Shown one piece after another: positions 15,290 to 63,000 of a stretch of DNA of 64,000 bases; positions within the stretch are counted from its first letter, which is position 1; each line of letters begins with the position of its first letter. The notes beneath the pieces are model-generated. The model worked only from the letters and a program-made list of their open reading frames with translations. It was not told the DNA's origin and searched no databases. Source of the DNA: a virus; IMG/VR virus record IMGVR_UViG_3300010160_000045, positions 3,816 through 67,815 of that record, one strand, 5' to 3'. The translations under genes and the position numbers were made by a program.

Positions 15290-15292
15290 AGT

Positions 15293-35697: not shown

Positions 35698-36390
35698 TTA
35701 GTTTACAAAAATACAATATTCTTCTGAATAAATGCCTAATTCAAGGTTAATCTGATTCCTAAGTTCAATTCTTTCCTCCAAATTATACTCCTTTTCTGCT
35801 TTCTTTAGTCGGTTGGATATGCCGCAAGCCAATGAGTAAAACATTTGATATTCCTCTTGTGAGTATTTTGGAACGGGAGTTTGCTTTAATCCAATAACAA
35901 ATAATAGGTAACTTCTGCCATACTCCCTTTCTAATCCCTCTTTCATTAAGGCATCATCATTTTGCCAATGGTTGCTTTGTGCTGATTGTCTGTGAATGTT
36001 ATGAGCGTTATATGTAAAATTCTTATTTGCTCCCGATGAAAATACATGACCTCCATGAAGTTGACCTGCGTTTATTTGCCTTGCTAAACATAACTGCCCT
36101 TTATCAATAAGCCTTACTATTTCGTTTATTTTTTGCTGCAATTTCTTTTTCCAATTAGTTACTTTGTCCTTTAACTCTTTGTCGGCTTTCTTCTCCTTAT
36201 CCTTTACTTGCTTCTTTGCCTTCTCAATCTTCTTAGCTATTACCTTCTGACCTGCCTCCGTTTCTCTCAGCCACCTCGCATAATGACTTTGGCTGATGTG
36301 CTTCTCCATACCCTTAGGTACAAACATCTCGCCACAAGGACATAGACAAGTTTTTTGCTTAGGAGTCTTTTGTTTTATTGTGGAGTTCAT
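35698..36390 (-). CDS. NinG/Rap-like nuclease
   Basis: N-terminal 'CLCPC...F.P', 'INEIVRLIDKGQLC', 'HGGHVFS.GA...NIHRQ'. Confidence 0.75.
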   Translation of the reverse strand: MNSTIKQKTPKQKTCLCPCGEMFVPKGMEKHISQSHYARWLRETEAGQKVIAKKIEKAKKQVKDKEKKADKELKDKVTNWKKKLQQKINEIVRLIDKGQLCLARQINAGQLHGGHVFSSGANKNFTYNAHNIHRQSAQSNHWQNDDALMKEGLEREYGRSYLLFVIGLKQTPVPKYSQEEYQMFYSLACGISNRLKKAEKEYNLEERIELRNQINLELGIYSEEYCIFVN

Positions 36391-38435: not shown

Positions 38436-39239
38436 ATGGCTGCAAACTTCCCCTACTTTAAATTTACAGCAACAGAGTGGTTGACTGGAGATATTATCTA
38501 CGAAGATTACGAACTTCAAGGTATTTTTATAAATGTTTGTGCCATTTATTGGAACAGAGATGGCAAAATAACTTTTGATGAAATGAAAAAGCGAATTAAA
38601 AGCGAACGGTTAGCGGAATTAAGCGGTGGCTTTTTTTCGGTTTCTGATGGGTTAATTTCAATAGCTTTTTTAGACGAGCAATTAATAACTGCAAAACACG
38701 TTTCTAAAATTAATTCAAAAAATGGCAAAAAAGGAGGTCGTCCAAAAGCCTTGATACCATTGGAGGAAAAAGCGGTCGGTTTAATTCCGTTTAACGAAAC
38801 GATAACGAAAAAAAGCAATAAAGAAGAAGAAGAAGAAAAAGAAGAAGAAGAAGAAGTAGAAAATGTACATACACTTTCACCTTCGGTTAAGCCATCAATC
38901 TCTCAAAGTAAAATTGATAGGTTCAACCACTACTCATCTTGGGCGGCTGAAAATTCTCCAAAATTGTTAAAAATAAAAAAACCTCTTACCGCCACGCAAC
39001 TTTCGGAGATAAGAAGCAAGTATTCTGCCGAGCAGTTCAAGGAAGTTTGTTTTGCAATGGAGGCAAAAAAGGATTTTTTAAGCAAGTATGATAACTTAAA
39101 TCTGACAATGAGAAGCTGGCTAAAGCGTCAATTCGGAGATGGGGGAAGTAGTGAGCCACCACCAAAAATTCCATTGCAAAAAGGTATTCAGATGCCAAAA
39201 TTAGTAACCCCAGTAGTTAATTTCGAGGATGCGATATGA
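38436..39239 (+). CDS. Replication initiator-like protein (YdaU/DUF1376-like)
   Basis: 'FPYFKF...WLTGDI', 'NSKNGKKGGRPK' and a poly-E linker, upstream of the primase-helicase. Confidence 0.7.
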   Translation: MAANFPYFKFTATEWLTGDIIYEDYELQGIFINVCAIYWNRDGKITFDEMKKRIKSERLAELSGGFFSVSDGLISIAFLDEQLITAKHVSKINSKNGKKGGRPKALIPLEEKAVGLIPFNETITKKSNKEEEEEKEEEEEVENVHTLSPSVKPSISQSKIDRFNHYSSWAAENSPKLLKIKKPLTATQLSEIRSKYSAEQFKEVCFAMEAKKDFLSKYDNLNLTMRSWLKRQFGDGGSSEPPPKIPLQKGIQMPKLVTPVVNFEDAI

Positions 39240-41242
39240 TACAAACAGCAAAAGAGTACTACCAAAGCGGATTGAGTATAATCCCGATAGGAGAAAAGAA
39301 ACTACCGATAGGCAGTTGGAAGAAGAACCAAACAGAATTGATTGAGCCAAGTTTCAGCAGTTGCATCGGCATAGGAATTGTTTGTGGAAAGGTTAGCGGT
39401 GGTGTTGAGTGCATTGACATTGACAGCAAGTATGACCTAACAGGAAACTTGTTTGACAACTACAAAAATCTGATAAACGAGCTTGATAAAAACCTACTGA
39501 AGAAGCTTGTAGTCCAGTCTACTCCAAGCGGAGGCTATCATTTTGTTTATCGTTGTGAAACCATTGAGGGAAATAAAAAACTTGCCAACAGGCACACCAC
39601 AGAAGCAGAAAAGGCAGAGAATCCAAAGGATAAAATCAGGGTTTTAATCGAAACTCGTGGTGAGGGAGGTTATTTTATGGTCACTCCGAGCAATGGCTAC
39701 AAGGTGATTTATGGCGACTTAAATCAAATATCGATTTTAAGCGCATTAGAGAGAGAAATTTTGTTCGTGTGTGCAAGAACACTCAACGAGGTATTTGAAG
39801 CTGCCACAGTTAACAAAACACAGCAAAAAACGCTATTAGATAACGTGTCACCATTTGATGATTGGAATAATCGTGGAGATGTGCTAAGTTTTTTAGAAAT
39901 GGAGGGTTGGGTTGTAAAGTTAAGAAACGGTGCTAAGAATTTATTGCTAAGACCACAAGGGACAGGAATGTGGAGTGCTGATTGGAACGAAGAAAAGAGA
40001 ATATTCTATGTTTTTACATCTTCTTCTGAATTTAGCCAAGACAGAGGGTATAATGCAACACAAGTTTTAGCAAAGTTAAAGTTCAATGATGATTTTTCTG
40101 AATGTGCTAAGTGGTTATTGAAGGAGGGTTACGGAAGTTTTACTCCAGAAAATAGTAAGTTTGACAATAAGCAAAAAAAAGAGCCTGAATACCTAAACAA
40201 GACAGAGATAAACCTTGAAGATGATAACTTTGACTTTCTTGCAACAAAGGAAGACTGCGATACATTTATCAATCAAAAAATAGATGGAACTTTTAAGATA
40301 GCAGACAGCACAGGCTTTGAAAAATTAGACGAGTATTGGAGATTTAAAGATGCTTCTTTGGATATGGTTTTAGGACACGACAATACTGGAAAGTCTGTAT
40401 TAACTTGGTTTCTTGCTGTGCTTGATTGCTACTTTAACAACAAAAGCTACATAGTTTTTGCAGGAGAGAACAATGTAGGTATGTTAAAATACAAATTAAT
40501 GGAATTTTATGCCGCCAAACCTATTAAAAAAATGGGAGTTCTTGAAAGAGGCGAGGCAATGTCTTGGGTTGAGGAACACTTTGCCATTATAAGAAACGAT
40601 GTAGCTTATACTTACAAAGATATGCTTGCAATTGGTAAAAAGATGCTAAAGAAAAAGCATTACCACAGGTTTATTATTGAGCCATACAATGTTTTACATA
40701 AAGACAGCAACAATGAACATCAATATGACTACAAGGCTATGTTAGATATGAAACTGTTTATCACTCAAACAAAAATGGGTATAACTTTAAACGTCCACGC
40801 TGCATCAGAGGCGTTAAGGAAGACCTACGGAAAGGAACACGAAGACTTTGGATATTCAATGCCGCCAAATAAAGCTGATGCGGAAGGCGGAGGAAAGTTC
40901 CCAAATAAAGCAGACAACTTTATGGTGGTTCATCGTATGGCAGACCACCCAGAAAAGTGGATGTGGACACAAATTCACGTTCAGAAGATAAAGGAAATGG
41001 AAACAGGAGGCAAGAGAACATTTAAGGACAGCCCTTTTAAGTTAAAACTGCAAATTGATGGTGCTGGCTTTGAGGATGAGTATGGATTCAACCCAATAAG
41101 GGACAGAAGGATATTGCCTACCCAACAAACAATGCCACTTGAACCAACCATCAAGCCTAACGCAGACTTTGACAGACCAAGCATTCAAGTCAACAATGGA
41201 GGTTTTGTACCAAGAGAGATGACCGAAGACGAGCTGTTTTAA
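39236..41242 (+). CDS. Prim-pol primase fused to a DnaB-like (SF4) helicase
   Basis: 'IGIVCG.VSGGVECIDID', 'STPSGGYH', 'IETRGEGGY'. Walker A 'GHDNTGKS', plus 'IIEPYN' and 'KADNFMVVHR'. Confidence 0.9.
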   Translation: MIQTAKEYYQSGLSIIPIGEKKLPIGSWKKNQTELIEPSFSSCIGIGIVCGKVSGGVECIDIDSKYDLTGNLFDNYKNLINELDKNLLKKLVVQSTPSGGYHFVYRCETIEGNKKLANRHTTEAEKAENPKDKIRVLIETRGEGGYFMVTPSNGYKVIYGDLNQISILSALEREILFVCARTLNEVFEAATVNKTQQKTLLDNVSPFDDWNNRGDVLSFLEMEGWVVKLRNGAKNLLLRPQGTGMWSADWNEEKRIFYVFTSSSEFSQDRGYNATQVLAKLKFNDDFSECAKWLLKEGYGSFTPENSKFDNKQKKEPEYLNKTEINLEDDNFDFLATKEDCDTFINQKIDGTFKIADSTGFEKLDEYWRFKDASLDMVLGHDNTGKSVLTWFLAVLDCYFNNKSYIVFAGENNVGMLKYKLMEFYAAKPIKKMGVLERGEAMSWVEEHFAIIRNDVAYTYKDMLAIGKKMLKKKHYHRFIIEPYNVLHKDSNNEHQYDYKAMLDMKLFITQTKMGITLNVHAASEALRKTYGKEHEDFGYSMPPNKADAEGGGKFPNKADNFMVVHRMADHPEKWMWTQIHVQKIKEMETGGKRTFKDSPFKLKLQIDGAGFEDEYGFNPIRDRRILPTQQTMPLEPTIKPNADFDRPSIQVNNGGFVPREMTEDELF

Positions 41243-41307
41243 TTTAAACTAATTCTAAATAACACAAACAGTTTGGATAATAAAAGTACAAACATTATTT
41301 TTGTCCT

Positions 41308-41445
41308 ATGATATACTTCATTATTCTTTTAGCGATATTGATAGAGGCGATATTTTTACCTCGTTTAAAACACAGCAATGGGCATCTGTTTTGCTTTTAC
41401 GGAAGGATAGTAAATAAAAAACGTAAATATTTTAAAATATATTAA
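41308..41445 (+). CDS. Small membrane protein (45 aa)
   Basis: MIYFIILLAILIEAIFLPRL..., directly after TATTTTTG at 41296-41303. Confidence 0.5.
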   Translation: MIYFIILLAILIEAIFLPRLKHSNGHLFCFYGRIVNKKRKYFKIY

Positions 41446-41447
41446 CA

Positions 41448-41648
41448 ATGGACTGGAAAGAAATAGAAGAAGAATTTAAAGAAAAATTTCAAAGTGCATT
41501 TTCGTATGTAGTTTTTTTATGGCTAAAGGAGCGTATCGAATCGGATATTAACGTATCGAATCGTATACCACCATTAACCGAAGAAGAAAGGAGTGAGTTC
41601 TACACAACAAATTTAACCGCAGATATAAAAGTTAACTATGGAAAGTAA
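41448..41648 (+). CDS. Hypothetical protein
   Basis: 66-aa ORF within the operon. Confidence 0.6.
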   Translation: MDWKEIEEEFKEKFQSAFSYVVFLWLKERIESDINVSNRIPPLTEEERSEFYTTNLTADIKVNYGK

Positions 41649-41660
41649 ACTTGAAAATGT

Positions 41661-41921
41661 ATGAGACTTGTGCTGCCTATTATGTATTGCAGGGAAGGTT
41701 CTATGGGTAAGATGAGCAGTTCTATACCATTAGAAAGTTCAGACTTTATAATTCATCACGCAATATTTTACAGCATAGACACAATAGAAATGTTAAAAAA
41801 TAATCCAGACCAATGTATAGTATCAAACTCCAGCGGAGAGTATAGAGTAGCATTATCAATGAAAGAAGTAGACAAAAAAATTATGCATCAAAGGAGGGCA
41901 ATGTTTTATGGAGCAAATTAA
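41661..41921 (+). CDS. Hypothetical protein
   Basis: 86-aa ORF within the operon. Confidence 0.6.
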   Translation: MRLVLPIMYCREGSMGKMSSSIPLESSDFIIHHAIFYSIDTIEMLKNNPDQCIVSNSSGEYRVALSMKEVDKKIMHQRRAMFYGAN

Positions 41922-42147
41922 GAAACCTAAAGAGTGGAGAGAGTTTATGTTCCCCTACAGGCAAGTAAGAAAGGAGTTATTCTGCACAGCGGTAAGGCAA
42001 AAGCTAAACCCAATGTACAGCAAGTTAGACATCATAGCTGGCATAAAAGAAATGGGCTACAACGAGGTTGAGGCTATGTACTACTACAATGTTATTGAGG
42101 AGGTAAAGAGAGGTGGTCTAAAGGAAAGGAATGGAGAGGAAGATTGA
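41908..42147 (+). CDS. Hypothetical protein
   Basis: 79-aa ORF overlapping its neighbours. Confidence 0.6.
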   Translation: MEQIKKPKEWREFMFPYRQVRKELFCTAVRQKLNPMYSKLDIIAGIKEMGYNEVEAMYYYNVIEEVKRGGLKERNGEED

Positions 42148-42364
42148 CTTCACCTTAGCAGAACTAACAGATTTCTTTAGGGAGTTAAAGACACCAAAAG
42201 TAATTGAGAAGCATTTACTACGGACAATAGCAGCAACGAGAAAGGTAGGAATAAACAAGTTAGAGGAGATGGTAGGTCAGGAGGCAATAACAAGAGAGTT
42301 ATACGAGAAGATTAAGTTAGCAGTAGAAAATCCACAATTAAAAATAGAAATAAAAGTTTTGTAA
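42131..42364 (+). CDS. Hypothetical protein
   Basis: 77-aa ORF overlapping its neighbour. Confidence 0.6.
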   Translation: MERKIDFTLAELTDFFRELKTPKVIEKHLLRTIAATRKVGINKLEEMVGQEAITRELYEKIKLAVENPQLKIEIKVL

Positions 42365-42506
42365 TTAAAAATTAATTTATATATTTGCATCGCTTATTAA
42401 TTACACTTTGAAAATTCAAATAAAAAAACATTCCCCGAAACTAAATGTAGTTACTCCTTACGGTGTGATTAATAAGCCATTTAGCGTAGGGGACTATATT
42501 TTTATT

Positions 42507-43130
42507 ATGGAAAATACAGAAGAAATTTGGAAGGATGTAGTTGGTTACGAAGGGCTATATCAAGTAAGCAATTTAGGCAGAGTGATGTCTTTTAGAAAGA
42601 AATCAAACGGTTTATTAATTTTGCCTTCTTATCGAAGAAAGTATTTAGCAGTAAATATTTATATAAATGGCAGTGTAAAGAATTGTTCTGTTCATAGACT
42701 TGTTGCAATATCGTTTATCCCAAACCCATTAAACAAGTCACAGGTAAATCATATTGACGGAAACCCATCAAACAACAAACTTTCTAATTTAGAATGGTGT
42801 ACTCATTCGGAAAATCAATTACATTCTTTTCATGTGTTAGGCAGAAAATCCAATCGACCTATGTTGGGTATAAAAGGTGAAAATAACCCACTTTCTAAAA
42901 AGGTGTACCAATTTTCACTTAACGGTGTTCTTATTAATGAATTTGCATCAAGGGATTTAGCATTTCAATTTATTAAAAATAACATAAACTCAGAAGCATG
43001 TATAAGTGCAATCGCAAACGCTTTAATAGGATTATCAAGACGTTCGTATGGTAACAAATGGTCTTACTCTCCTAATTTTTTAGATATTGATATATTATAC
43101 AATAAAAAGAAAATTTACAATTTAAAATAG
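42507..43130 (+). CDS. NUMOD4-HNH homing endonuclease
   Basis: 'EIWKDVVGYEGLYQVSNLGRV', 'VHRLVA..F', 'VNHIDGNPSNN.LSNLEWCT' and a NUMOD1-like tail. The likely start is ATG 42507. Confidence 0.9.
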   Translation: MENTEEIWKDVVGYEGLYQVSNLGRVMSFRKKSNGLLILPSYRRKYLAVNIYINGSVKNCSVHRLVAISFIPNPLNKSQVNHIDGNPSNNKLSNLEWCTHSENQLHSFHVLGRKSNRPMLGIKGENNPLSKKVYQFSLNGVLINEFASRDLAFQFIKNNINSEACISAIANALIGLSRRSYGNKWSYSPNFLDIDILYNKKKIYNLK

Positions 43131-43137
43131 AAATAAA

Positions 43138-43374
43138 ATGACACAGAAACAATCAGTAATTGAACTATTTAAGTCAGGCGAGGAAGTAGACGCATTGTCG
43201 TGCTTTAAAGCCACAGGAAGTATGCGTCTTAGCGCAAAAGTTTTCAATATGAAAGTACAAGGATATGTCTTTGACGAAAGAACAGTATCGTTCAAAACAC
43301 GTTTCAGGACTACTGGAAGCATAAAGAAATACAAGCTAAACACAAAGAAAACACCTAAAAGTTTGTTACAATGA
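43138..43374 (+). CDS. Winged-HTH DNA-binding protein
   Basis: 'QKQSVIELFKSG...GSMRLSAKVFNMKVQGY'. Confidence 0.65.
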   Translation: MTQKQSVIELFKSGEEVDALSCFKATGSMRLSAKVFNMKVQGYVFDERTVSFKTRFRTTGSIKKYKLNTKKTPKSLLQ

Positions 43375-43583
43375 AATTTGAAGTAGAAGATGTAAAAGTA
43401 ACATACGTTCAAAAGGAAGATAGCTGCGACAGAAATCACTCACCTCAAGAGTTAAAAATATTTACTGATGATGCAGGTAGCGGTAAGTACATAGTATTTG
43501 AAACAGAACGATGGGCTATTGACAGTATTGATGAACTGATAGAGATACTTAACGACTTTAAAACAAGGGCTGGAATAAAATGA
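43371..43583 (+). CDS. Hypothetical protein
   Basis: 70 aa, ATGA-coupled. Confidence 0.65.
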   Translation: MKFEVEDVKVTYVQKEDSCDRNHSPQELKIFTDDAGSGKYIVFETERWAIDSIDELIEILNDFKTRAGIK

Positions 43584-43840
43584 AAAACACAGCACTCTTA
43601 AACTCCGAGGAGGAACAGATATACGAAGCCTATACTGTATTAGGAATAGCAGCAGTAAAGGGAATACTAAACTGCAACACAGACACCGCCAATAAGACCG
43701 TAAGGGCAATACTAAAGAAGGTAAGGGAGAACAAAACCTTTGAGGAGAGGCAGAGTGCAAGGTACGACAAGGTGAAGACAGCAATAAGTCAGGCTAAGTT
43801 TGATGGGGAGTTAAGCTATAGAGTTATGTCGGAGGTGTAA
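43580..43840 (+). CDS. Hypothetical protein
   Basis: 86 aa, ATGA-coupled. Confidence 0.6.
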   Translation: MKNTALLNSEEEQIYEAYTVLGIAAVKGILNCNTDTANKTVRAILKKVRENKTFEERQSARYDKVKTAISQAKFDGELSYRVMSEV

Positions 43841-43963
43841 TGTTTTGCGGCTTGGCGATGGCTACGAAGCGTTGGCATTGTGCGGTGGAGTAGCTTGCGC
43901 CAAACCGCTGTTATACGCTGTATTATTTTTTTTGTGCGTGGGCAATTAACCAATTTATAAATT

Positions 43964-44512
43964 ATGAAATTAGACTTAATAACAAACAAAGCTGAAAAGC
44001 AAGGAGAAGTAAATCCAAATGATGAATTTTACACTCCAAATTATGCGATTGAACCGCTATTGAAATACATTAAACCAAGTAGCAACATTTGGTGTCCATT
44101 TGATACACACGAAAGTAACTTTGTAAAATTGCTAATTAAGGCAGGACACAATGTTCATTGGACACACATTGAGGCAGGAATGGATTTCTTTACCGAAGAT
44201 GCACCAGTGCAAACGGATTACATTATTTCAAATCCACCCTATTCATTAAAAGCAGAAGTTTTTGAACGCTTATTTAAATTGGATATTCCCTTTGCAATGC
44301 TTGTTGGAGTGGTAGGAATATTTGAAAGCCAAAAACGATTTACAATGTTCAAAAATAATGACTTTGAAATAATGTATTTTGATAAGCGAATTAGCTATTT
44401 TAAAAGTTACGCAGACCAAAAACCAAGTTTAAATCCACCGTTTTCAAGTGTGTATATTTGCAAAGATTTACTTCCGAAGCAGATTGTCTTTGAAGCGTTG
44501 GCAAAAAAATAA
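43964..44512 (+). CDS. DNA N6-adenine methyltransferase
   Basis: 'DEFYTP', 'IWCPFD', 'DYIISNPPYS'. Confidence 0.85.
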   Translation: MKLDLITNKAEKQGEVNPNDEFYTPNYAIEPLLKYIKPSSNIWCPFDTHESNFVKLLIKAGHNVHWTHIEAGMDFFTEDAPVQTDYIISNPPYSLKAEVFERLFKLDIPFAMLVGVVGIFESQKRFTMFKNNDFEIMYFDKRISYFKSYADQKPSLNPPFSSVYICKDLLPKQIVFEALAKK

Positions 44513-44639
44513 TATTTCTTATAACGTATGGGTATTTGCGCTCGTTTTAATGGCGCAAATACTGTGTTACCTGCTGGTGCGGTTTATTTAGCAGGATTTT
44601 TATTTGTAAACGAAAAGAAAATTTAAAAAGTTTTAGAGT

Positions 44640-45356
44640 ATGAAATATATGGGAAGTAAAAATCGGATAGCAAAAGAAATACTACCGATAATGTTACAAG
44701 AACGAGGACAAAGAACTTGGGTTGAACCTTTTGTTGGAGGTGCGAATATTATTGATAAGGTGCAAGGGGATAGAATTGGTGGAGATAAAAACGAGTATGT
44801 TATTTCGTTATTTAAAGCACTACAAAATGGATGGACTCCACCAAAATATGTGAGTGAAGATGAATATAATAATATTAAAAACAATTTTAAAGACTACGAA
44901 AAACATTTAATTGGATATGTTGGCTTCAATAGTTATGGAGGTAAATTTTTTAGAGGTTATAGGCGAGATAATGAAGGGAAAAGAGATTATTGGACAGAAC
45001 ACTTTAATAACTTACAGAAACAAGTAGAAGTCATCAAAAATGTAGATTTCTTTTGCTGTGATTACAATGAATTGGAAATACCAAACAATTCAATTATATA
45101 TTGTGATATACCGTATGGAGAAACAGAAAAATACAAAGTGAATGGCGTATATGAGAGATTTAATTATGAATTATTTTGGGATTGGTGTAGGATTAAAGCG
45201 AATCAAGGACATAAAATTTTTGTGAGTGAATATAATGCACCTGCTGATTTTGAATGTGTATGGTTGCAAGAAGTATCAAGTAATTTAACTAACAATGATA
45301 AAGGTAAAAAAGCGGTGGAAAAACTTTTTAAATTTTCTCCCACAAATATTCAATAG
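44640..45356 (+). CDS. Dam/D12-class DNA adenine methyltransferase
   Basis: 'MKYMGSKNRIAK', 'WVEPFVGG', 'IIYCDIPY', 'IFVSEY'. Confidence 0.85.
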   Translation: MKYMGSKNRIAKEILPIMLQERGQRTWVEPFVGGANIIDKVQGDRIGGDKNEYVISLFKALQNGWTPPKYVSEDEYNNIKNNFKDYEKHLIGYVGFNSYGGKFFRGYRRDNEGKRDYWTEHFNNLQKQVEVIKNVDFFCCDYNELEIPNNSIIYCDIPYGETEKYKVNGVYERFNYELFWDWCRIKANQGHKIFVSEYNAPADFECVWLQEVSSNLTNNDKGKKAVEKLFKFSPTNIQ

Positions 45357-45459
45357 TAGTAGTATCGTAGCACTTGCAGGTAACTACCGTATATGCGCCA
45401 ATAGTATCGCATATACAACAAACAGTAAGGAGATAAGCGAATAAAAACACACTAATAAT

Positions 45460-45690
45460 ATGACACAATCGTCAATAAAGCTATCAGACACAATAGCCGA
45501 GATAAGCAAAGACATAGAACTTGCCAACTCAAAGATGAACCAACTCCTTGAAAACGACAAGGGAATCTGCTTCATAATAAAAGGAAATAAAGCAACAGAA
45601 CAAATAGACTTCCGAATGGACAAAACACTATTCGATATGTATTGGAACATAAGAGAGAAAGCATACAATAGATTAAAAGAAATAATATGA
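45460..45690 (+). CDS. Hypothetical protein
   Basis: 76-aa ORF with an A-rich start. Confidence 0.6.
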   Translation: MTQSSIKLSDTIAEISKDIELANSKMNQLLENDKGICFIIKGNKATEQIDFRMDKTLFDMYWNIREKAYNRLKEII

Positions 45691-45727
45691 ATAAGGTCGC
45701 AATCTGCGACTACAAAATAATAAAACT

Positions 45728-45979
45728 ATGGAAAGGACACACAAGTACACATTTGAAATTTACAACGGTAGAGTTAAAGTAAAATACAATGGTTGTGTAA
45801 TGTTCACGTTTAATCAGATTGATTTTCTGGGGTATTACTTTTTTAAGGACGATTCCTCGTTGTATGGTTGTACGTTGTACTTTTCACGAGAGAAAGCAGG
45901 TGCAAGCGAAATGGATGTCTACTTTAAGTCAAAAAAAACTTGGATGGAAGTAAATAAACTGCTTGACGAAAATATGTAA
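45728..45979 (+). CDS. Hypothetical protein
   Basis: 83-aa ORF. Confidence 0.6.
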   Translation: MERTHKYTFEIYNGRVKVKYNGCVMFTFNQIDFLGYYFFKDDSSLYGCTLYFSREKAGASEMDVYFKSKKTWMEVNKLLDENM

Positions 45980-46283
45980 TATGACAATAGACTACACAAT
46001 AGGCGATGACATAGTAGCAATAAAAAGCCACAGCCAAAACACTTACAAAGAAGGCGACGTATTCACCTGCATAGGACTCAAACAATCACCCTGCAAATGC
46101 AAAATGTTCACAGTAGACATAAACATAAGGTCAGCATACAAAGAAATGCTGTGCCTACATTGTAACTACACATTCAAATCTAACAATAACTGGTGGTTCA
46201 ACGCTAACCTATTTCGTAAACTCGACAACCTCGTTCAAATAAACGAAATAAACGAGATACTTAAACAGCCAGCTAAAGTGTAA
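45963..46283 (+). CDS. Hypothetical Cys-containing protein
   Basis: CKC and CxxC motifs. The start is probably ATG 45981. Confidence 0.6.
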   Translation: MTKICNMTIDYTIGDDIVAIKSHSQNTYKEGDVFTCIGLKQSPCKCKMFTVDINIRSAYKEMLCLHCNYTFKSNNNWWFNANLFRKLDNLVQINEINEILKQPAKV

Positions 46284-46372
46284 AACTGCCTTATTAAGAA
46301 TTATTCTAAATAATTTGCATATATCGATATAATTATTTATCCTTGTGCAAACAAATTTATAAATACAATATT

Positions 46373-47062
46373 ATGCAATCAAATGTAGTAATGAAATCGC
46401 CAGACCGCAACTTATTTGGAATAACAATAAGGCAAAACACTAAGGAGCAGTTCTTATCTGTTTCTGATTTGCAAAAGGCATACGAAACAGCAAGATGGCA
46501 ACATGGGTGGAGCGACAGAAAAGTAGCCGACATTCTAAATACTGAAATGACAAGAGAAAGGGTGTTTTCCTTACTGCAAGAGAAGAATCTCATAAAAGCC
46601 GACCGATTGGGTTTTATGGAAATGGTTAATAAAGAGGGGCTTACAAAAGTACTAAAGGGATTAGGGCTTTATAAGACAACAGGCAGAGGAATAAACAAAA
46701 CAGTAATGGCAGACCCTTACATTTGGGTATTGCTTGCTATGGAGTTAAATCCTTTACTGTGGGCTAAAACAATTATATTCATAACTGATACCTTAATATT
46801 TGACCGCATAGAAGCAGGAACAGAATATATGCCAATGAACACAGCTATAAAGTCATTGATAAATAATCCAGATTACGCTAAATACGCTAAAGCAATAAAC
46901 GAAAGAGTATTCGGAAGGCATATAACAGGGGCAAGGCAATTAGCATCATCAGAACAGCTTAAAAAGATAGCATCAATTGAAAGGTTTGTTATTAACGCAA
47001 TAGAAATGAAACTAATTAAAACAGATAACGACCTATTGAACGTAATCAAGAATTATAAATAA
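46373..47062 (+). CDS. KilA-N-like DNA-binding protein
   Basis: 'RNLFGITIRQNTK.QFLSVSDL', 'YKTTGRG.NK.VMADPYIWVLLAMELNP'. Confidence 0.7.
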   Translation: MQSNVVMKSPDRNLFGITIRQNTKEQFLSVSDLQKAYETARWQHGWSDRKVADILNTEMTRERVFSLLQEKNLIKADRLGFMEMVNKEGLTKVLKGLGLYKTTGRGINKTVMADPYIWVLLAMELNPLLWAKTIIFITDTLIFDRIEAGTEYMPMNTAIKSLINNPDYAKYAKAINERVFGRHITGARQLASSEQLKKIASIERFVINAIEMKLIKTDNDLLNVIKNYK

Positions 47063-47569
47063 ATCAGTATATTTGTAGCCAAGAAGAAAATAAAAACATG
47101 ATAACATTAATAAGAAACATAACAAAGGAAGTAAAGACGCAAAGAATAACTGTGCGTGTAGGAAAGGCTAATACAAAGGTAGTATGTTAGTCACGACTAT
47201 AAGAGAGGAGTATAACCGCCCCACATCAGCAAACAGCATCCCCAATCAAAATGACCCCCCAAACATCAAACAGAATTTGAAAACTGAAATCGATTTGCCC
47301 TTCATCCTTTCTCCCTTGCCTATTGTATTGGTTTTAGCTCGTTGTTGCTGCCTATCTTATAACCATCTGTTCCATTGGTAATAAAATCAGCTAAACATTG
47401 CGCTCCTTTGTCCTTTGCCTCAGCAAATTAACATAGCTTTAATCAATTAACCTAAAAAATTATACCTTTTCAAATATGTTCGTCGAAGGATTAATAAAGA
47501 TTTTAAGAAAAAAAGCGGGGTTTTATAAAATTAATCTACACTTTTTGCCCTTTCGTCATTATCCGACAT

Positions 47570-47663
47570 TAAACGTTTACAAACGGATAAAATTAATACA
47601 TTTGCACCTTAAAAGGAGCTATAATAGCCTACTAACCGTTTTTAAACGTTTGTAAACGGATAA
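47570..47663 (+). promoter_or_regulatory. Promoter flanked by two operator-like 21-bp repeats
   Basis: taaacgttt(ac/gt)aaacggataa at 47570-47590 and 47643-47663. TACATTTG at 47597-47604. Confidence 0.55.
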
Positions 47664-47667
47664 TTGA

Positions 47668-48039
47668 ATGCAAACTTACAGAAATTACTCCTATTCATTT
47701 CAAAAGGCTTTATTTTACCCTATTAAAGTAACTTTATTTGAACGTTCTATAAGTTTACCTATGTTGGTAAAGGAATTAAACAAAAAGCCCTTAGGAATCA
47801 ATTATACATTAAGTAGTTTAGATAATTGCTTCAAGGGACAAAATAACGCTTCTATATCTTTACACTATTATTCTAACATATATAACATCCTTTCTTTACC
47901 TCTCCCGACCCCTCAATATTTATATGATAGCTTTCTACGTTGGGAGGAGATTAAACGTTTTAAATTAGACAGGAGGAACGCTAACAGAATCAAAAAAGGT
48001 TTGTTGCCTGTTACCAGTATAAGCACCCGTATTAAATAG
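47668..48039 (+). CDS. Hypothetical basic protein, possibly an HTH regulator
   Basis: 123 aa with its own promoter. 'SLPMLVKEL...YTLSSLDNCFKG' is HTH-like. Confidence 0.5.
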   Translation: MQTYRNYSYSFQKALFYPIKVTLFERSISLPMLVKELNKKPLGINYTLSSLDNCFKGQNNASISLHYYSNIYNILSLPLPTPQYLYDSFLRWEEIKRFKLDRRNANRIKKGLLPVTSISTRIK

Positions 48040-51483: not shown

Positions 51484-52044
51484 ATGAAAACACAAAAACA
51501 AATTTTAAGAGAAAAGGCGCACACATACGGACTTAAAGCCTTAACAGATGCAGAAATATTAAACATATTGAATTATAAAGGAGCTGAGGAAGAATTTTAT
51601 AGTAGTCAGTTTTTTAAAGCAGCAAAGGAAATATTGAGAAGGCAAGAAGTTAAAGAAGTGATAAAGATTAAAAGCAGCGGAGATGCCTATAATATTTTAA
51701 GCCATTTGGAAGGACTAAACCACGAGCAGTTTTGGTGCGTATACCTGAAAAGGAATAACCAAGTAATAAAGGATGAATTTATAAGTAAGGGAGGAATAAC
51801 AGCGACAATAGTAGACACAAAAATAATATTAAAAACAGCTATTAATTTAGATGCGAGCGCAATAGTTTTATGCCACAACCACCCAAGCGGAGAGGCAAGA
51901 CCAAGCAGCGCAGATATAGAGATAACAAACAAGGTTAAAGATGCAGCAAAATTGATGGATATACAAGTGGTTGACCATATAATTATAGGCAACGGGCAAA
52001 ACCTTGTAAAATACTATTCATTTTGCGATGAAGGAATGATTTAA
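51484..52044 (+). CDS. radC: RadC-like JAB domain protein
   Basis: 'EQFW.VYL', 'IVLCHNHPSGEARPSSADI', 'VVDHIIIG'. Confidence 0.9.
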   Translation: MKTQKQILREKAHTYGLKALTDAEILNILNYKGAEEEFYSSQFFKAAKEILRRQEVKEVIKIKSSGDAYNILSHLEGLNHEQFWCVYLKRNNQVIKDEFISKGGITATIVDTKIILKTAINLDASAIVLCHNHPSGEARPSSADIEITNKVKDAAKLMDIQVVDHIIIGNGQNLVKYYSFCDEGMI

Positions 52045-58447: not shown

Positions 58448-59167
58448 ATGAAAAAAGCTAAATTATACGCCCGTGTGTCAACAGACAAGCAAGAAAGCAG
58501 CGTTGACCAACAAATAAAAGAACTGCAAGACTTCTGGGCAAGGTTAAATCTTGATGGCTATGAAGTAGAATATCTTATTGATGAAAATGTTTCGGGAGGA
58601 ACTGAGTTATTTGATAGACCACAAGGCTCAAAATTAAAGGACTTAGAAGCCGATAGCATCGTTATTGCATATAAGAAGGAGCGTTTGTTCCGCAATACAA
58701 TAAACGCACTACAAATCGTTTATAAATGGCTTGACGATGGGGTAACTGTTTACTTTATTGAAAATGGATTAGAGCCTCTAAATTTAAGCAATCCAAACTC
58801 AAAGTTTATATTTACAATACTTTGTGCTAAAGATGAACTTGAAAAGGACACAATCGCTTTAAGGACTAAACTTAATATGAAGTTCCGCAAAGAAAATGGG
58901 CGGACATACTCAGCAGAAGTGTTCGGATATGACAACGTAGGTGAGAGGGGAAGCAATGGAAAGATTATTGATGGTAGGTTAGTCGCCAACGAAGACGAGC
59001 AGCAGGTAATAAAACAAATTTTAGAATGGCACAATATTAACATATCCCTTAATGGTATTGCAAGGAATCTAAACGAAAGGAATACTCCCAGCAAGAAGGG
59101 TAAGAAGTGGTCAGCAAAGACCGTAAGGGATACCATCAAGAACACTATCAATTTAGAGAGAGTATAA
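58448..59167 (+). CDS. Serine recombinase (resolvase-family catalytic domain plus a short recombinase domain)
   Basis: 'LYARVSTDKQ', 'DENVSGG...RP', 'ERLFRN', 'FGYD...IARNLNERNTPSKKGKKWS'. Confidence 0.9.
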   Translation: MKKAKLYARVSTDKQESSVDQQIKELQDFWARLNLDGYEVEYLIDENVSGGTELFDRPQGSKLKDLEADSIVIAYKKERLFRNTINALQIVYKWLDDGVTVYFIENGLEPLNLSNPNSKFIFTILCAKDELEKDTIALRTKLNMKFRKENGRTYSAEVFGYDNVGERGSNGKIIDGRLVANEDEQQVIKQILEWHNINISLNGIARNLNERNTPSKKGKKWSAKTVRDTIKNTINLERV

Positions 59168-59250
59168 ATAAAAAAGATATTGTTGATAATTACATTATTA
59201 TTATATTAATTTGCATAACTAATTTAAACACTATAAAAACAAAAAAAACA

Positions 59251-59616
59251 ATGACAATATTTGAATTTACACTATACACTTTAATGCTTAGTTATAATCC
59301 TTGTGATGTATTTAAACATTTTAATGTAACTGAAATGCACGGTCTTAATTTAGCTGATTGTGAAAAGTACAATAACACTAATGAAGATGCTTATATAGCA
59401 GGTTTGTCTAATGTATCTCCTATTGATGGTAAACCATTTGTGTTTATAAACTTAAGTAGGTGTACTGATGATATAGCAACAACTGGACTAACATTTCATG
59501 AAATGATGCACCTATCTCTTGATTTACATAATAATGATTTATCTAAAGAAGAGGAAATAATTACATGGGCAGAGCTTGAATCTTATAAAGTACTTAAACT
59601 AATTAAAAAACAATAA
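59251..59616 (+). CDS. Small zincin-like (HExxH) protein
   Basis: 'TFHEMMH...EEEII.WAE'. The likely start is ATG 59251. Confidence 0.6.
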   Translation: MTIFEFTLYTLMLSYNPCDVFKHFNVTEMHGLNLADCEKYNNTNEDAYIAGLSNVSPIDGKPFVFINLSRCTDDIATTGLTFHEMMHLSLDLHNNDLSKEEEIITWAELESYKVLKLIKKQ

Positions 59617-60918: not shown

Positions 60919-61137
60919 ATGACACCAAAAGAAAAATCAGAAGAATTAGTATTAAAATTTTTAAGAATAGAAAATAATACTCCAGAATGGTTTAATACGC
61001 ATATTGCCAAACAATGTGCATTAATTGCAGTTCAAGAAATAATTAACGCAAATCCGCATAGCAATCCATTAACAACTGAAGTTTATTCAACTATGTTATT
61101 TTGGCAAGAAGTTAAAACCGAAATAAACAAACTATGA
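60919..61137 (+). CDS. Hypothetical protein ('MTPKEK..EL...AKQCALIAV.EI' type)
   Basis: Likely start MTPKEK within track ORF 60895..61137. Confidence 0.65.
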   Translation: MTPKEKSEELVLKFLRIENNTPEWFNTHIAKQCALIAVQEIINANPHSNPLTTEVYSTMLFWQEVKTEINKL

Positions 61138-62072
61138 AACAATTAACAGCAGTTGAATATTTGATTAGTGAATTGATGAAATCAAAACATTATCAGCAAA
61201 TGATTAACGAAGTACATCAAAATAGTACAGTAGCAATAGATGTTATTGAACAAGCCAAAGCAATGGAAAAGGAGCAGATGGATAAAGCATTTGATAGTGG
61301 TAGAAATGAGGAAATAAATAAAGGAAGTAAAATATGTTATAAAGTATATGGACTTTATGTTGATGGGCAAGAATTAATTAGGTATATTGGATTTACTAAA
61401 AACAAAATACAAACAAGGCTTAATGAACATACTTCTGAAAGCAAATACTTAAAAACAAAAAAAGATAGATGGATTCAAAAGTATTTAAGAAATGAAAAGC
61501 AAATATGTGCAATAGAACTGGATTCTACATTTGATTTTGAAGAAGTAAAGAAAAAAGAAATTAATTTAATTGCTATGTATAAATCTTGCGGTGCTAATTT
61601 AATGAATGGCACTAATGGAGGTGATGGCTCTATTAATTTTAGACATACGGAAGAAAACAAAATAACTAATGGAATTAGAAAATCAAAAAAGGTTTATTGT
61701 TTTGATTTTAAAACAAAAGAATTAATTGCAGAGTATCCTTCAATAACAAAAATGATAAAAGAATTAAAATTAAGCAAAACATTGGTGGCAAAAGTTTTAA
61801 ATGGTTCAAGTAATTTCCATAAAGATTTTACTTTTTCAAAAGATGGCATTTGCCCTACTCCTTTTACTCCAAAGCATACTGCTTGGAACAAAGGAATATC
61901 AACAAAAGGAACTCAAAGATTTAGATTTACTGAAACTAAATTAGAAAAAGATGGAGAAATTCTTACATTTGAATCTGTAAGTGATGCTTCAAAATTTTTA
62001 GGGAAAAATCATACTTTTGTGATTAAAAAAAGAAAATTAAATCAACCAATAAACGGATATAAAATAATATGA
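61134..62072 (+). CDS. GIY-YIG homing endonuclease fused to a phage small-protein domain
   Basis: 'KVYGL...IRYIGFT...RLNEH', 'E.NLIA.YK..GANL.N.T.GGDG', and NUMOD-like 'KVYCFD...IAEYPSI' and 'FESVSDASKFLG'. Confidence 0.85.
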   Translation: MKQLTAVEYLISELMKSKHYQQMINEVHQNSTVAIDVIEQAKAMEKEQMDKAFDSGRNEEINKGSKICYKVYGLYVDGQELIRYIGFTKNKIQTRLNEHTSESKYLKTKKDRWIQKYLRNEKQICAIELDSTFDFEEVKKKEINLIAMYKSCGANLMNGTNGGDGSINFRHTEENKITNGIRKSKKVYCFDFKTKELIAEYPSITKMIKELKLSKTLVAKVLNGSSNFHKDFTFSKDGICPTPFTPKHTAWNKGISTKGTQRFRFTETKLEKDGEILTFESVSDASKFLGKNHTFVIKKRKLNQPINGYKII

Positions 62073-62500: not shown

Positions 62501-62682
62501 CACGAAACACACGCTACACGAATGGCAAGGAGGTAATTACTTTCAGCAAGATTGATTTTATAGTTATCGGAGGTCGCAAGATTGACCATGTTTATTTTAG
62601 AAGAAAGGACAAACACGATTTGATAATGCCTTTGGTCGAATGGAATTTAAAAGGTAAATTTGAGTGGGAAATAATTAATTAA
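62497..62682 (+). CDS. Hypothetical protein
   Basis: 61 aa, ATGA-coupled. Confidence 0.55.
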   Translation: MTRNTRYTNGKEVITFSKIDFIVIGGRKIDHVYFRRKDKHDLIMPLVEWNLKGKFEWEIIN

Positions 62683-63000
62683 CGTTCCGATTATTTGCGT
62701 TCGGTGGGGCGTTACACCGCCAAAGATTGTTTAACAAACTAAAGTTCAAAATATGCACACAGATTCAAAAAATCATGAAACCCCCACTGACGCAAATAAT
62801 GTGTTAGTGGCTGGCATTTGTCGGCACTTTAAACATCAAGTTGCGGAGAGGGAATTTTATGTGAACCAAAAAAAGCCATATAGCGGAACAAGAATTATAT
62901 GTTTAAAATGCGGTAAAAACAAGTTTATAAAAGATGCTGAGTATGGTGTCTATGCTTGCCGCTAACTACCTTATATGCGCTACATTTACACGCTTATACA
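62680..63000 (+). mobile_element. Single integron-like cassette with a long attC-like site
   Basis: TAAC 62680, stem 62690-62709/62782-62800, GTTA 62803. Cassette ends gttagtggctggcat and atgcttgccgctaac are inverted repeats. The terminal site matches 45381-45416. Confidence 0.6.
62753..62965 (+). CDS. Small Zn-finger-like cassette protein
   Basis: C-x-H...CxxC. The N-terminus 'ETPTDANNVLVAG' is encoded by the hairpin arm. Confidence 0.6.
   Translation: MHTDSKNHETPTDANNVLVAGICRHFKHQVAEREFYVNQKKPYSGTRIICLKCGKNKFIKDAEYGVYACR

Follow-up and report, generated by a model that had tools for sequence, protein, structure and literature searches.

Positions 43842-45384 of the window, the 64,000-nt stretch of a freshwater phage record (IMGVR_UViG_3300010160_000045; 67.8 kb in full, 44% complete) analysed here, are probably occupied by mobile cassettes of a family carried by Bacteroidota phages and exchanged site-specifically at TAAC/GTTA cores, likely by an Xer-like enzyme. 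The window is a well-documented new member of this family and not its first sighting; a homologous two-methylase array is already in print. A cassette array of integron-like geometry with two methyltransferase genes had been proposed from the letters of this DNA, and the proposal is supported: both hairpins, both methyltransferase ORFs, the TAAT, TAAC and GTTA cores and the complementary cassette ends were confirmed at the coordinates of Table 1.

Table 1. Features of the two-cassette array and of its surroundings, in window coordinates
Feature	Position	Strand	Remarks
HNH homing endonuclease	42408-43130		0.7 kb upstream of the array
Backbone gene, 86 aa	43580-43840	+	No Pfam family; kept in relative L124 at 15102-15362
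Hairpin 1, long-loop variant of the family site	43838-43913	+	Fold, stem shared with L111, contig breakpoints
Inserted block, two cassettes, 1543 nt	43842-45384	+	Missing from relative L124
Cassette 1, 5' end	43910-43932	+	Begins GTTA; inverted-repeat partner of 44503-44525
MTase 1 (cargo 1), putative N6-adenine DNA methyltransferase, 182 aa	43964-44512	+	NPPY motif, weak PF13651
Cassette 1, 3' end	44503-44525	+	Finishes in TAAC; overlaps final codons of MTase 1
Hairpin 2, canonical family core	44522-44569	+	Fold, family pattern, covariation
Cassette 2, 5' end and leader	44566-44639	+	Small hairpin CCTGCT..AGCAGG then T-run; left arm of 19-nt repeat
MTase 2 (cargo 2), predicted D12-class (Dam-like) N6-adenine DNA methyltransferase, 238 aa	44640-45356	+	PF02086
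Cassette 2, 3' end	45320-45384	+	Right arm of 19-nt repeat; finishes in GCACTTGCAGGTAAC; overlaps final MTase 2 codons
Array end, attI-like site	45381-45420	+	TAAC then TACCGTATATG and 9-bp hairpin; z -4.25
Second cassette locus, 127-nt long-loop hairpin	62680-62806	+	TAACG to TGTTA; 10/10 stem pairs; z -2.37
End of second cassette locus	62963-63000	+	..GCCGCTAAC then TACCTTATATGCGC; same terminal form as at 45381

Anatomy of the array

The left junction, TAAT (43838-43841), takes its first three bases from the TAA stop codon of the 86-aa backbone gene. From there hairpin 1 runs through a 5-nt spacer, a stem of 11 bp plus 5 bp and a 24-nt loop to TGTTA (43909-43913); its 19-nt arms (43847-43865 and 43890-43908) are 79% complementary, and its outer stem is identical to that of the canonical copy in L111. 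Hairpin 2 consists of TAAC (44522), a 6-nt spacer, a perfect 10-bp stem around the 11-nt loop TCGTTTTAATG, the return stem, a 3-nt spacer and GTTA, with GTTAC at 44566-44570. As single-stranded DNA both hairpins out-fold shuffled sequence: hairpin 1 at -15.9 kcal/mol (z -2.47; 3 of 200 shuffles equally good) and hairpin 2 at -10.3 kcal/mol (z -4.05; 1 of 200). The array closes with a GGTAAC that finishes at 45384.

The two ends of cassette 1 are complementary over 23 nt at 83% (19/23). In cassette 2 a 15-mer matches its reverse-complement partner with two mismatches (13/15), which taken alone is within chance (2 matches where 0.77 are expected; 21 of 100 shuffles give 2 or more), so that the significance of end pairing comes from the family-level tests given below. 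Cassette 2 also contains a perfect 19-nt inverted repeat (44616-44634 with 45320-45338; 19/19) that was not part of the original prediction.

A consensus terminator scan called neither hairpin, and the accompanying promoter scan returned fewer promoter-like sites than shuffled sequence did (15 against 21.7). Rfam models applied to 41000-48000 at E-values up to 1 gave only a weak CRISPR-DR53 match at 42439, which was dropped (25.8 bits; gathering score 45). The loop 11-mer recurs exactly at 62442 (minus strand), where it is part of coding sequence and has no stem; this copy is thus taken as a chance match. The window also encodes a serine recombinase with Resolvase and Recombinase domains (58448-59167), which had been overlooked.

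Methyltransferase cargo

The translation of MTase 1 contains ..IISNPPYS.. and shows a match to the EcoRI_methylase family (PF13651; E 1e-4, 22.2 bits) that falls under the cut-off of 26.4, while no NCBIfam family was matched by this protein. At the nucleotide level the MTase 1 gene is a 66% match to one from a Flavobacterium phage with the annotation DNA methyltransferase. MTase 2 lies well above the cut-off of PF02086 (E 6e-12, 46.2 bits against 22) and scores 52 bits with the dam model TIGR00571, under that model's cut-off. It was compared with gp54 of Polaribacter phage P12002L (52% identity) and with a copy in the 635-kb megaphage LR745206.1 (51%); the catalytic motif reads DIPY in MTase 2 and DPPY in both homologues. 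Against the megaphage, cassette 2 is 95% identical at its 5' end and 93% at its 3' end, 63% in the ORF interior and 49-51% in the flanks outside. The methylase cargo most likely shields phage DNA against host restriction.

Precise gain and loss of the cassettes

Relatives were compared for precise absence of the cassettes, which the original prediction had put forward as its own test. The sole relative close enough for comparison at 43842-45384 is L124, whose primase is 98% identical to that of the window phage. The outcome favours the prediction. L124 lacks exactly this block, with junctions at TAAT and TAAC, and its empty site keeps no hairpin: window 43108-43841 aligns with L124 14636-15363, and window 45381-45980 with L124 15360-15958, which places the crossover 5' of the hairpin, at TAAC or just past it. 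The attI-like array end is present and unoccupied in L124. Of ten indel events in all, three further ones at other loci likewise have both junctions at TAAC(G). Judged from these alignments, gain and loss of cassettes are exact at the conserved core, to within the cleaved bond. Searches for more relatives at the array site gave one weak locus with the 86-aa flanking ORF and six loci with an 83-aa flanking ORF, five of which share that ORF alone, the sixth being the L124 contig.

Contigs from three lake-water runs of other studies match single modules and have breakpoints at 43838, 44521-44525, 44565-44569 and 45384-45385, which indicate reuse of modules and not the recombination event itself, since repeats are where Logan contigs tend to break. 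In run X5 one contig of 1936 nt has 1247 nt foreign to the window, then matches 43838-44525 and stops there; contigs of X5 and X13 cease matching at 45384-45385. Runs X4, X6-X12 and X14-X24 contain small shares of the sequence words, and no conclusion draws on them; the runs compared are contigs and thus bear on DNA, not on transcripts. The core of hairpin 2 occurs with other flanks in L033, L114 and run X13.

Mobility could in principle be conferred by another enzyme of the window, either the HNH homing endonuclease, which is also found close upstream of the array in P12002L (gp59), or the protein with Resolvase and Recombinase domains. Yet L124 aligns over the HNH region at 73% identity without having the cassettes, homing explains neither the hairpins nor the repeats at the cassettes' own ends, and PF00239 was found in only 2 of 44 hairpin-bearing records, on which ground the serine recombinase was rejected as partner enzyme. 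We consider this explanation highly improbable.

The geometry of the insertion also recalls single-strand transposition. IS200/IS605 and REP/RAYT elements have subterminal hairpins, a short target and a Y1 (HUH) transposase, and the cassettes might be non-autonomous units inserted 3' of TAAY by such an enzyme acting in trans. TAAT stands immediately 5' of the insertion, which finishes in TAAC, a hairpin begins 5 nt from the left end, and nothing is duplicated past the shared core. The Y1 transposase family (PF01797, Y1_Tnp) is, however, absent from the window record and from all 22 hairpin-bearing records searched, eight of them at least 90% complete, so that a Y1 transposase was rejected as partner; bacterial chromosomes hold 1-4 copies of the hairpin and not the hundreds typical of REP, and the arrays end beside a tyrosine recombinase of the Xer/IntI clade. 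The chance that transposition of this type accounts for the block is accordingly very small.

The hairpin family

Searched with the pattern of hairpin 2 (19 specified bases, which hold TAAC, GTTA and the loop constant), IMG/VR gave at least 120 stretches, and a further 57 came from genomes, most of them Bacteroidota MAG contigs. Of the genome matches, at least the two in Psychromonas have no stem and were set aside as chance. The family core has a covarying 12-bp stem closed by TAAC and GTTA, with unpaired spacers of 4 nt (5') and 1 nt (3'). Each of the 12 pairs in this stem shows compensatory double changes; the paired share of cells is 93.6%, against 35-50% in slid-register controls. A G.T pair stands at the base of the stem in 30 of 61, and the strand asymmetry of wobble pairs rests on this one position (46 G.T against 10 A.C overall, 15 against 10 once the basal pair is left out).

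Pairing joins the two ends of one cassette and does not span the hairpin. For the 34 cassettes between consecutive hairpins the mean own-end pairing score was 7.06, compared with 2.11 across the hairpin (n=139) and 1.92 for random pairings (Mann-Whitney p 1e-4 and 2.5e-6), and across-hairpin pairing was no different from random (p 0.088). The rule that a cassette's end pairs with its own start, predicted from the window, therefore holds family-wide.

Among pairs of sites with the same core, 1713 of 1811 share neither flank. Same-core linkage was 43% at the downstream end (90/210) and 33% at the upstream end (7/21), with a base rate of 10%. Because the same core is joined to different partners on either side, the hairpin site appears to have two crossover points, both flanks being exchangeable. 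The contig breakpoints found on each side of 44522-44569 are in agreement with this.

In 112 of 116 cases the hairpin precedes an ORF on its own strand (antisense control 16/120), at a median distance of 41.5 nt. Such a position would suit a regulatory module, in which hairpin and leader serve as terminator, RNA-processing site or promoter while the genes are shuffled by homologous or illegitimate recombination between repeats. The Bacteroidota-type -7 motif TAnnTTTG is modestly enriched behind the hairpin (29/121 against 9-17 in controls), and the cassettes had been called promoterless in the original prediction, a description which these two observations leave unsupported. A loop that is fixed (by the search pattern) on a variable stem is what a protein- or RNA-recognised loop would give, the basal G.T pair fits a strand-specific fold, possibly of RNA, and in the leader of cassette 2 a T-run comes after a small GC hairpin. 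On the other hand neither hairpin was called as a terminator; a long hairpin predicts pairing across itself, whereas that pairing was at chance and the far ends of the cassette pair instead; and homologous recombination between repeats should leave one copy behind, whereas the empty site of L124 has none. We regard a purely regulatory module as unlikely, though less so than the two alternatives above. The regulatory and recombination readings are compatible, in that a site of recombination might have a role in expression too.

A search for cultured phages with a common family copy returned one uncultured record only, and the longer-loop sites of P12002L were reached through the match to its methyltransferase. 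Three papers contain the loop 11-mer TCGTTTTAATG, one of them within a primer, and these occurrences were rejected.

A tyrosine recombinase at array ends in related phages

No tyrosine recombinase (PF00589) is encoded anywhere in the 67.8-kb record, 44% complete, which extends to the whole record the earlier remark that the window has no tyrosine integrase. PF00589 proteins of 266-281 aa were found in 8 of 22 hairpin-bearing records, and all five records checked have the gene 1.2-2.1 kb downstream from a canonical same-strand hairpin. Among the 72 related recombinase loci with sufficient upstream DNA, 69 have a TAAC|TA..TATA(T) junction at most 300 nt upstream of the gene, in 57 distinct contexts. 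Generic hairpins occur upstream of the recombinase on the same strand at 1.16 per kb, against 0.04-0.09 per kb elsewhere; the detector (at least 9 of 10 stem pairs) was used solely for these relative densities, being unspecific by itself (8 matches in the window against a shuffle mean of 7.27). The two array ends of the window (45381 and 62963) share the TAAC|TA..TATAT form without a recombinase gene. A regulatory module leaves the presence of this junction before a tyrosine recombinase gene (69/72) unexplained.

With the integron integrase model TIGR02249 (IntI) the related-phage recombinase scores 157-166 bits, under the cut-off of 265, in two matching stretches (model positions 5-179 and 243-314); from this split it seems to be without the IntI-specific insert. 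Its best curated models are XerA, XerD and XerC, alongside IntI, and it falls under the cut-off of every curated model. By these profile comparisons it is assigned to the Xer/IntI clade and is not an IntI. The original prediction had called for a host or unlinked recombinase. An unlinked enzyme is plausible, with an Xer-like recombinase behind matching array ends in relatives, and the IntI type is disfavoured by the score (166 bits against 265).

The likeliest enzyme to move these cassettes would be this Xer-like recombinase. The link between array and recombinase is one of association, because the gene is absent from the window record and from 5 of the 8 hairpin-bearing records with a completeness of 90% or more. 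The recombinase could also itself be cargo within the same early-gene region.

Capture from a Bacteroidota pool of attC-like cassettes had been suggested as well, and a host chromosomal pool was not established. Hairpins in host chromosomes are few: four in Fluviicola (two with 2 mismatches), one in Gillisia and two in Thalassobellus (one with 2 mismatches). In the two regions examined, those of Gillisia and Fluviicola lie antisense amid assorted genes, and at three loci the nearest recombinase relatives in these chromosomes (open frames of 211-389 aa) had no canonical hairpin within ~1.5 kb. The integron integrases of two Psychromonas genomes are irrelevant as partners, since the pattern matches in those genomes are stemless.

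Proposed mechanism and significance

The cassette pair occupies a short attachment-like site directly past the stop codon of the backbone gene. Each unit has a hairpin of the form TAAC(G)-stem-loop-stem-(T)GTTA, followed by a leader and a single methyltransferase gene, and its 3' end, terminating in TAAC, is an inverted complement of its 5' end. Units would be swapped by site-specific recombination at the TAAC/GTTA cores, the likeliest enzyme being the small Xer/IntI-clade tyrosine recombinase encoded behind like array ends in related phages, which might be supplied from the unsequenced part of the genome, by a co-infecting phage or by the host. We infer that the sites act as folded single strands, and the exact position of cleavage is inferred in the same way. 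As the phage fragment carries no recombinase copy, its array may be viewed as the equivalent of a CALIN, an attC cluster without an integrase.

We lean, by a narrow degree, towards a wider proposal: that Bacteroidota phages, from 40-kb virulent ones to jumbo phages of >300 kb, run their own counterpart of the integron, with an Xer-like recombinase at the end of the array, folding sites 5' of the genes, exchangeable flanks and supply of the enzyme in trans. The hairpin itself would then be a mini-cassette, and arrays without a recombinase might be fed in trans during co-infection, so that counter-defence genes, methyltransferases among them, would be traded in a common market. To our knowledge integrons are bacterial devices and in phages have been reported only as scattered attC clusters. 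The window and its relatives point to a system borne by phages that has a recombinase type and a site grammar of its own and carries its genes in inverted orientation. Hundreds of environmental phage contigs contain it, and it is barely described so far. If the recombinase moves the cassettes, this would explain base-pair-precise exchange of single genes among virulent phages without an integrase, and a 48-nt site and a 270-aa enzyme would make compact laboratory parts.

Comparison with known systems

As in integrons and CALINs, single-gene units are split by imperfect hairpins with an AAC...GTT base, the two ends of a unit are complementary to each other and not to those of its neighbour, and gain and loss are precise at a conserved core. 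In relatives, as in integrons, a recombinase of the Xer/IntI clade lies beside a conserved array-end site joined to many cassette ends. Provided that its hairpins (43838 and 44522, with the terminal core at 45381) count as attC-like, the window resembles a CALIN, since its record encodes no tyrosine recombinase. Unlike integrons, the phage family has a recombinase of 266-281 aa that reaches 157-166 bits on TIGR02249 (cut-off 265), with no IntI beside the window array; its hairpin lies 5' of the gene and its genes point toward the recombinase, whereas an integron site stands 3' of a promoterless ORF driven by a platform promoter; its own-end repeats are 20-30 nt long, against about 7; and its core has different partners on both sides, where an integron site has one crossover point. 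In attC the stem is conserved and the terminal loop variable, whereas in the phage family the loop is conserved and the stem variable.

Xer/dif systems are similar in that the best models of the recombinase are XerA, XerD and XerC and that short sites flank discrete gene modules. A dif site has 28 bp with two 11-bp arms, and dif modules occur on plasmids; the sites described here are hairpins of 48-127 nt with variable stems, and no 28-bp dif-like site was recognised. The PeSL cassettes of T4-type phages share a repeated stem-loop and leader before small accessory genes, a plastic region and the shuffling of single genes. Homologous recombination between PeSL repeats leaves one copy at the empty site, whereas the empty site of the phage family has no repeat copy, and the family differs further by its own terminal inverted repeats and a linked tyrosine recombinase gene.

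A literature search for a recombinase-headed cassette platform in phages, with subscription journals outside its scope, gave one directly relevant paper (Qi et al. 2023, Front Microbiol 14:1091391, PMC9892861), which describes a CALIN with two methyltransferase genes in P12002L, a virulent phage of a Flavobacteriia host. In that article two sites were predicted with HattCI/Infernal and termed divergent in direction, IntI1 recombined one of them with attI1 on the bottom strand only, and neither a linked recombinase nor a family or site comparison is reported (PMC9892861). This published recombination is a further result that a regulatory module leaves unexplained.

Like the window, P12002L has two DNA-modification genes in a cassette array, gp54 being the homologue of MTase 2 noted above. 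Family hairpins and own-end repeats of ~30 nt were found around its gp54 and gp53, and the site that is active with IntI1 is presumably one of these hairpins. Their layout is TAACG, stem, loop CGTTT...AATG, stem and TGTTAC, with about 10 additional bases in the loop, and the array finishes in a terminal ..GGGTAAC without a hairpin.

Organization of the cassette array

The region 43842–45384 is best accounted for as two cassettes belonging to an integron-like system, which have inserted into a short site 3' of a backbone gene. Crossover would occur at TAAY or immediately 3' of it, with TAAT retained by the backbone at the left junction and TAAC supplied by the insert at the right. The array region is a run of small plus-strand genes located 3' of primase-polymerase and HNH endonuclease genes, and the ORFs, hairpins and TAAT/TAAC/GTTA cores listed in the original prediction were all found there. 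Both hairpins are more stable than shuffled sequence when folded as single-stranded DNA (z -2.47 for hairpin 1, -4.05 for hairpin 2). The ends of each cassette are complementary, as had been proposed (23 nt with 83% complementarity in cassette 1; 15 nt, two of them mismatched, in cassette 2), a single pair of this kind being by itself within chance, and it is the family-wide comparisons that carry the case. Cassette 2 also holds a perfect 19-nt inverted repeat (44616–44634 with 45320–45338) that was absent from the original list. Judging by their family, the two DNA methyltransferases (MTases) may act against restriction. The motif near residue 146 of MTase 2 is DIPY, and its homologs in Polaribacter phage P12002L and the uncultured megaphage LR745206.1 have DPPY.

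Features of the array and of other regions of the window
Feature	Position (strand)	Characteristics
Very large ORFs	1149–34873 (-)	a run with ORFs of 2878, 1671 and 1509 aa, as is typical for certain large podovirus-like phages
NinG/Rap-type endonuclease	35698–36390 (-)	junction-specific; PF05766
Primase-polymerase gene	39236–41242	PF09250; upstream of array
HNH endonuclease gene	42408–43130	NUMOD4 and HNH_3; 0.6–0.7 kb upstream of first cassette locus
86-aa ORF	ends 43840	stop TAA and next T form TAAT (43838–43841)
Hairpin 1	arms 43847–43865 / 43890–43908	closing TGTTA
MTase 1	43964–44512	182-aa ORF; NPPY motif; sub-threshold EcoRI_methylase match
Hairpin 2	TAAC at 44522	perfect 10-bp stem, loop TCGTTTTAATG, then GTTAC
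MTase 2	44640–45356	238-aa ORF; D12-class adenine methyltransferase
Array end 1 (first locus)	45381; GGTAAC ends 45384	..GGTAAC followed by TACCGTATATG
RadC-like JAB domain protein	51484–52044 (+)	PF04002, E 1.6e-40; among early-type plus-strand genes
Serine recombinase	58448–59167 (+)	239 aa; Resolvase N-terminal and Recombinase domains; PHROG 'integrase'
169-aa ORF	59107–59616	behind serine recombinase and overlapping it; no family
Second homing-endonuclease-type gene	61134–62072	NUMOD1 and I-HmuI-like NUMOD domain; 0.6–0.7 kb upstream of second cassette locus
Array end 2	62963	..GCTAAC followed by TACCTTATATG

Empty site in a related contig

A primase search returned five related contigs, among them L124, whose primase is 98% identical. 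On either side of the array this contig and the window are collinear (43108–43841 with L124 14636–15363; 45381–45980 with L124 15360–15958), and alignment showed that 43842–45384 is absent from L124. In a three-way alignment the empty site reads ..TTTAA T TACCC.. and holds no hairpin copy; the small hairpin found 3' of the array in the window also continues the empty site of L124. This alignment places the left junction at TAAT and the right junction at TAAC, so that the precise absence of the cassettes from a relative, named in the original prediction as a test, was observed with the junctions where they had been placed. The other relatives share one flanking ORF only and are uninformative on this insertion site.

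The hairpin family

Megaphage LR745206.1 (635 kb) carries a homolog of cassette 2 whose match to the window is bounded by the cassette borders: the ends are 95% and 93% identical and the ORF interior 63%, and outside the borders the two sequences are unrelated (49–51% identity). The hairpin 5' of this cassette has an identical loop and TAAC/GTTA, with a different but compensated stem. A second hairpin of the family follows the cassette, 5' of a gene which by translation would encode a putative cytosine-5 methylase.

The search pattern TAAC-N16-loop-N13-GTTA specifies 19 bases and was found in at least 120 IMG/VR stretches and in 57 stretches of species-representative genomes, the latter mostly small contigs of Bacteroidota metagenome-assembled genomes (MAGs), together with a few chromosomes; TAAC, GTTA and the loop are set by this pattern, and their invariance is therefore no result. 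At least two matches, both in Psychromonas, lack a stem and were rejected as chance. Among 61 distinct copies, compensatory double changes occur at all 12 core-stem pairs, and 93.6% of core-stem cells are paired versus 35–50% of all cells in registers slid by 1–3 columns. The conserved AAC lies on the 5' arm of the gene-sense strand, which agrees with the position of AAC on the attC strand that is recombined. In 112 of 116 cases an ORF of 40 or more codons on the same strand begins within 200 nt 3' of the hairpin (antisense control, 16/120; median gap 41.5 nt), which indicates that the site stands in front of a gene and not behind it.

Canonical hairpins, of the type of hairpin 2, also lie antisense between accessory-type genes in a Fluviicola chromosome (L203 4807–4854 and 13507–13554) and in Gillisia (L202 6753–6800), the neighbouring genes including LRR, lipocalin-like and bestrophin genes. 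Classical integron cassettes have the orientation of these chromosomal hairpins, whereas the phage arrays are the reverse. The Gillisia hairpin lies 1.7 kb from an integrase of a different type, with 343 aa and a SAM_5 domain. Mini-hairpins with the reversed order GTTA, 4–5 nt, the same 11-nt loop, 4–5 nt and TAAC were seen in eight loci (L019, L032, L086, L114, L210, L212, L241 and L252), either between two full hairpins or directly 5' of an array-end site; they resemble cassettes containing nothing but the loop.

Pairing of cassette ends

In 34 non-redundant segments between consecutive hairpins, the 30 nt that follow GTTA were scored for complementarity to the 30 nt preceding the next TAAC. 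The mean score was 7.06 for the two ends of a cassette, 2.11 for the flanks of a single hairpin (n=139) and 1.92 for random pairings (n=1000); own ends differed from hairpin flanks at p 1e-4 and from random at p 2.5e-6, and hairpin flanks did not differ significantly from random pairings (p 0.088). Scores of at least 9 were reached by 12 of the 34 cassettes, the random 95th percentile being 6, and in the alignment 48.4% of cells in the flank columns are paired, a value equal to that of slid controls. Own-end pairing, which had been put forward as the integron-cassette signature of this array, is thus present across the family. It also bears on the proposal that the hairpins are regulatory elements and nothing besides, which we regard as improbable: a long regulatory hairpin would show the opposite of this pairing. 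A regulatory role may nevertheless coexist with recombination.

Reuse of modules

All-against-all comparison of the loci yielded ten indel events, that of the window included. Both junctions lie at TAAC(G) in four (window/L124, two in L056/L077 and one in L106/L026); the remaining six do not involve the core and are ordinary gene-boundary events. Contigs from four sequencing runs were compared with 43000–46400; one run may be where this DNA was sequenced, and the other three are lake-water metagenomes of other studies. Contigs of these three runs match single modules, diverging at 43838, 44521–44525, 44565–44569 and 45384–45385. One contig of 1936 nt contains 43838–44525 with 15 differences, preceded by 1247 nt foreign to the window, and in another run the core 44522–44569 is flanked as in locus L114. 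Contigs of this kind end at repeats, so they document reuse of the modules elsewhere and not recombination as it happens.

A pairwise count of flanks and cores covered 190 contexts. Neither flank is shared by 1713 of the 1811 pairs having the same core. The core is shared by 43% of pairs with the same downstream and different upstream ends, and by 33% (7/21) of those with the same upstream and different downstream ends, against a base rate of 10%. Each side of the core thus acts as a junction, a departure from the integron site with its single crossover point.

Recombinases and the array-end site

Neither a tyrosine recombinase nor a Y1 transposase was found in the 67.8-kb record containing the window, which is 44% complete (CheckV); the earlier remark that the window has no recognisable tyrosine integrase extends to the whole record. 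Among 22 hairpin-bearing records, none has a Y1 transposase and eight have tyrosine recombinases (3/8 among those at least 90% complete), seven of the eight being alike in size with open frames of 268–281 aa. In all five cases checked, a canonical hairpin in the same orientation as the gene precedes it by 1.2–2.1 kb. The linked recombinase possesses Phage_int_SAM_4 and Phage_integrase domains; among curated models it scores best with XerA (197.5 bits, cut-off 220), XerD and the integron integrase model TIGR02249 (166 bits, cut-off 265), and it falls below the cut-off of all of them. The linkage suggests that a Xer-like enzyme would be the catalyst.

Base-by-base reading of four loci showed that the last cassette has ..TATAAC at its end and that the recombinase gene starts 35–70 nt beyond, with a conserved TAT.ATTATAT motif between them. 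The 277-aa linked recombinase of locus L204 has the site TAAC followed by TATTATATG. When an alignment of four linked recombinases was searched against IMG/VR, 91 relatives were obtained and 80 kept. TAAC followed by TA..TATA was present within 300 nt upstream of the recombinase gene in 69 of the 72 loci with at least 300 nt upstream; these 69 array ends represent 57 distinct contexts, in which the sequence 5' of the C varies and that 3' of it is conserved. The density of generic TAAC...GTTA hairpins is 1.16 per kb on the gene's strand upstream, and 0.09, 0.09 and 0.04 per kb elsewhere. Both array ends of the window have the recombinase-junction form, yet ordinary small genes come next.

The serine recombinase of the window, not listed in the original prediction, may have arisen by truncation or splitting of a large serine recombinase, in a phage fragment that otherwise looks virulent. 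Its family is present in only two of 44 hairpin-bearing records.

Comparison with phage P12002L

From a screen of 10,705 phage genomes, Qi et al. 2023 (PMC9892861) report 17 clusters of attC sites without an integrase (CALINs), one of them in the virulent Polaribacter phage P12002L, where it 'encodes two putative DNA methyltransferases'. According to the same study, IntI1 recombined one of the two predicted P12002L sites with attI1, on the bottom strand only, and did not recombine the other. Together with the covarying stems, this strand-specific result suggests that recombination would use the sites as folded, single-stranded DNA. Literature searches for a recombinase-headed cassette platform in phages found nothing besides this paper.

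MTase 2 is 52% identical to gp54 of P12002L. The surroundings of gp54/gp53 resemble the window in site layout, with own-end repeats of ~30 nt and a hairpin-less GGGTAAC at the terminus, and no tyrosine recombinase was found in this phage. From gp58 to gp55 (L129 2095–2700) the junctions of four small genes are of the type ..TAACG TGTTG.., without a stem-loop. The P12002L array may be longer than the two printed sites, with hairpin-less junctions. An HNH gene lies ~1 kb upstream of it, and gp51, the counterpart of the NinG/Rap-type endonuclease of the window, is located directly behind it; as this family is common in phages, the sharing of the gene may be coincidence.
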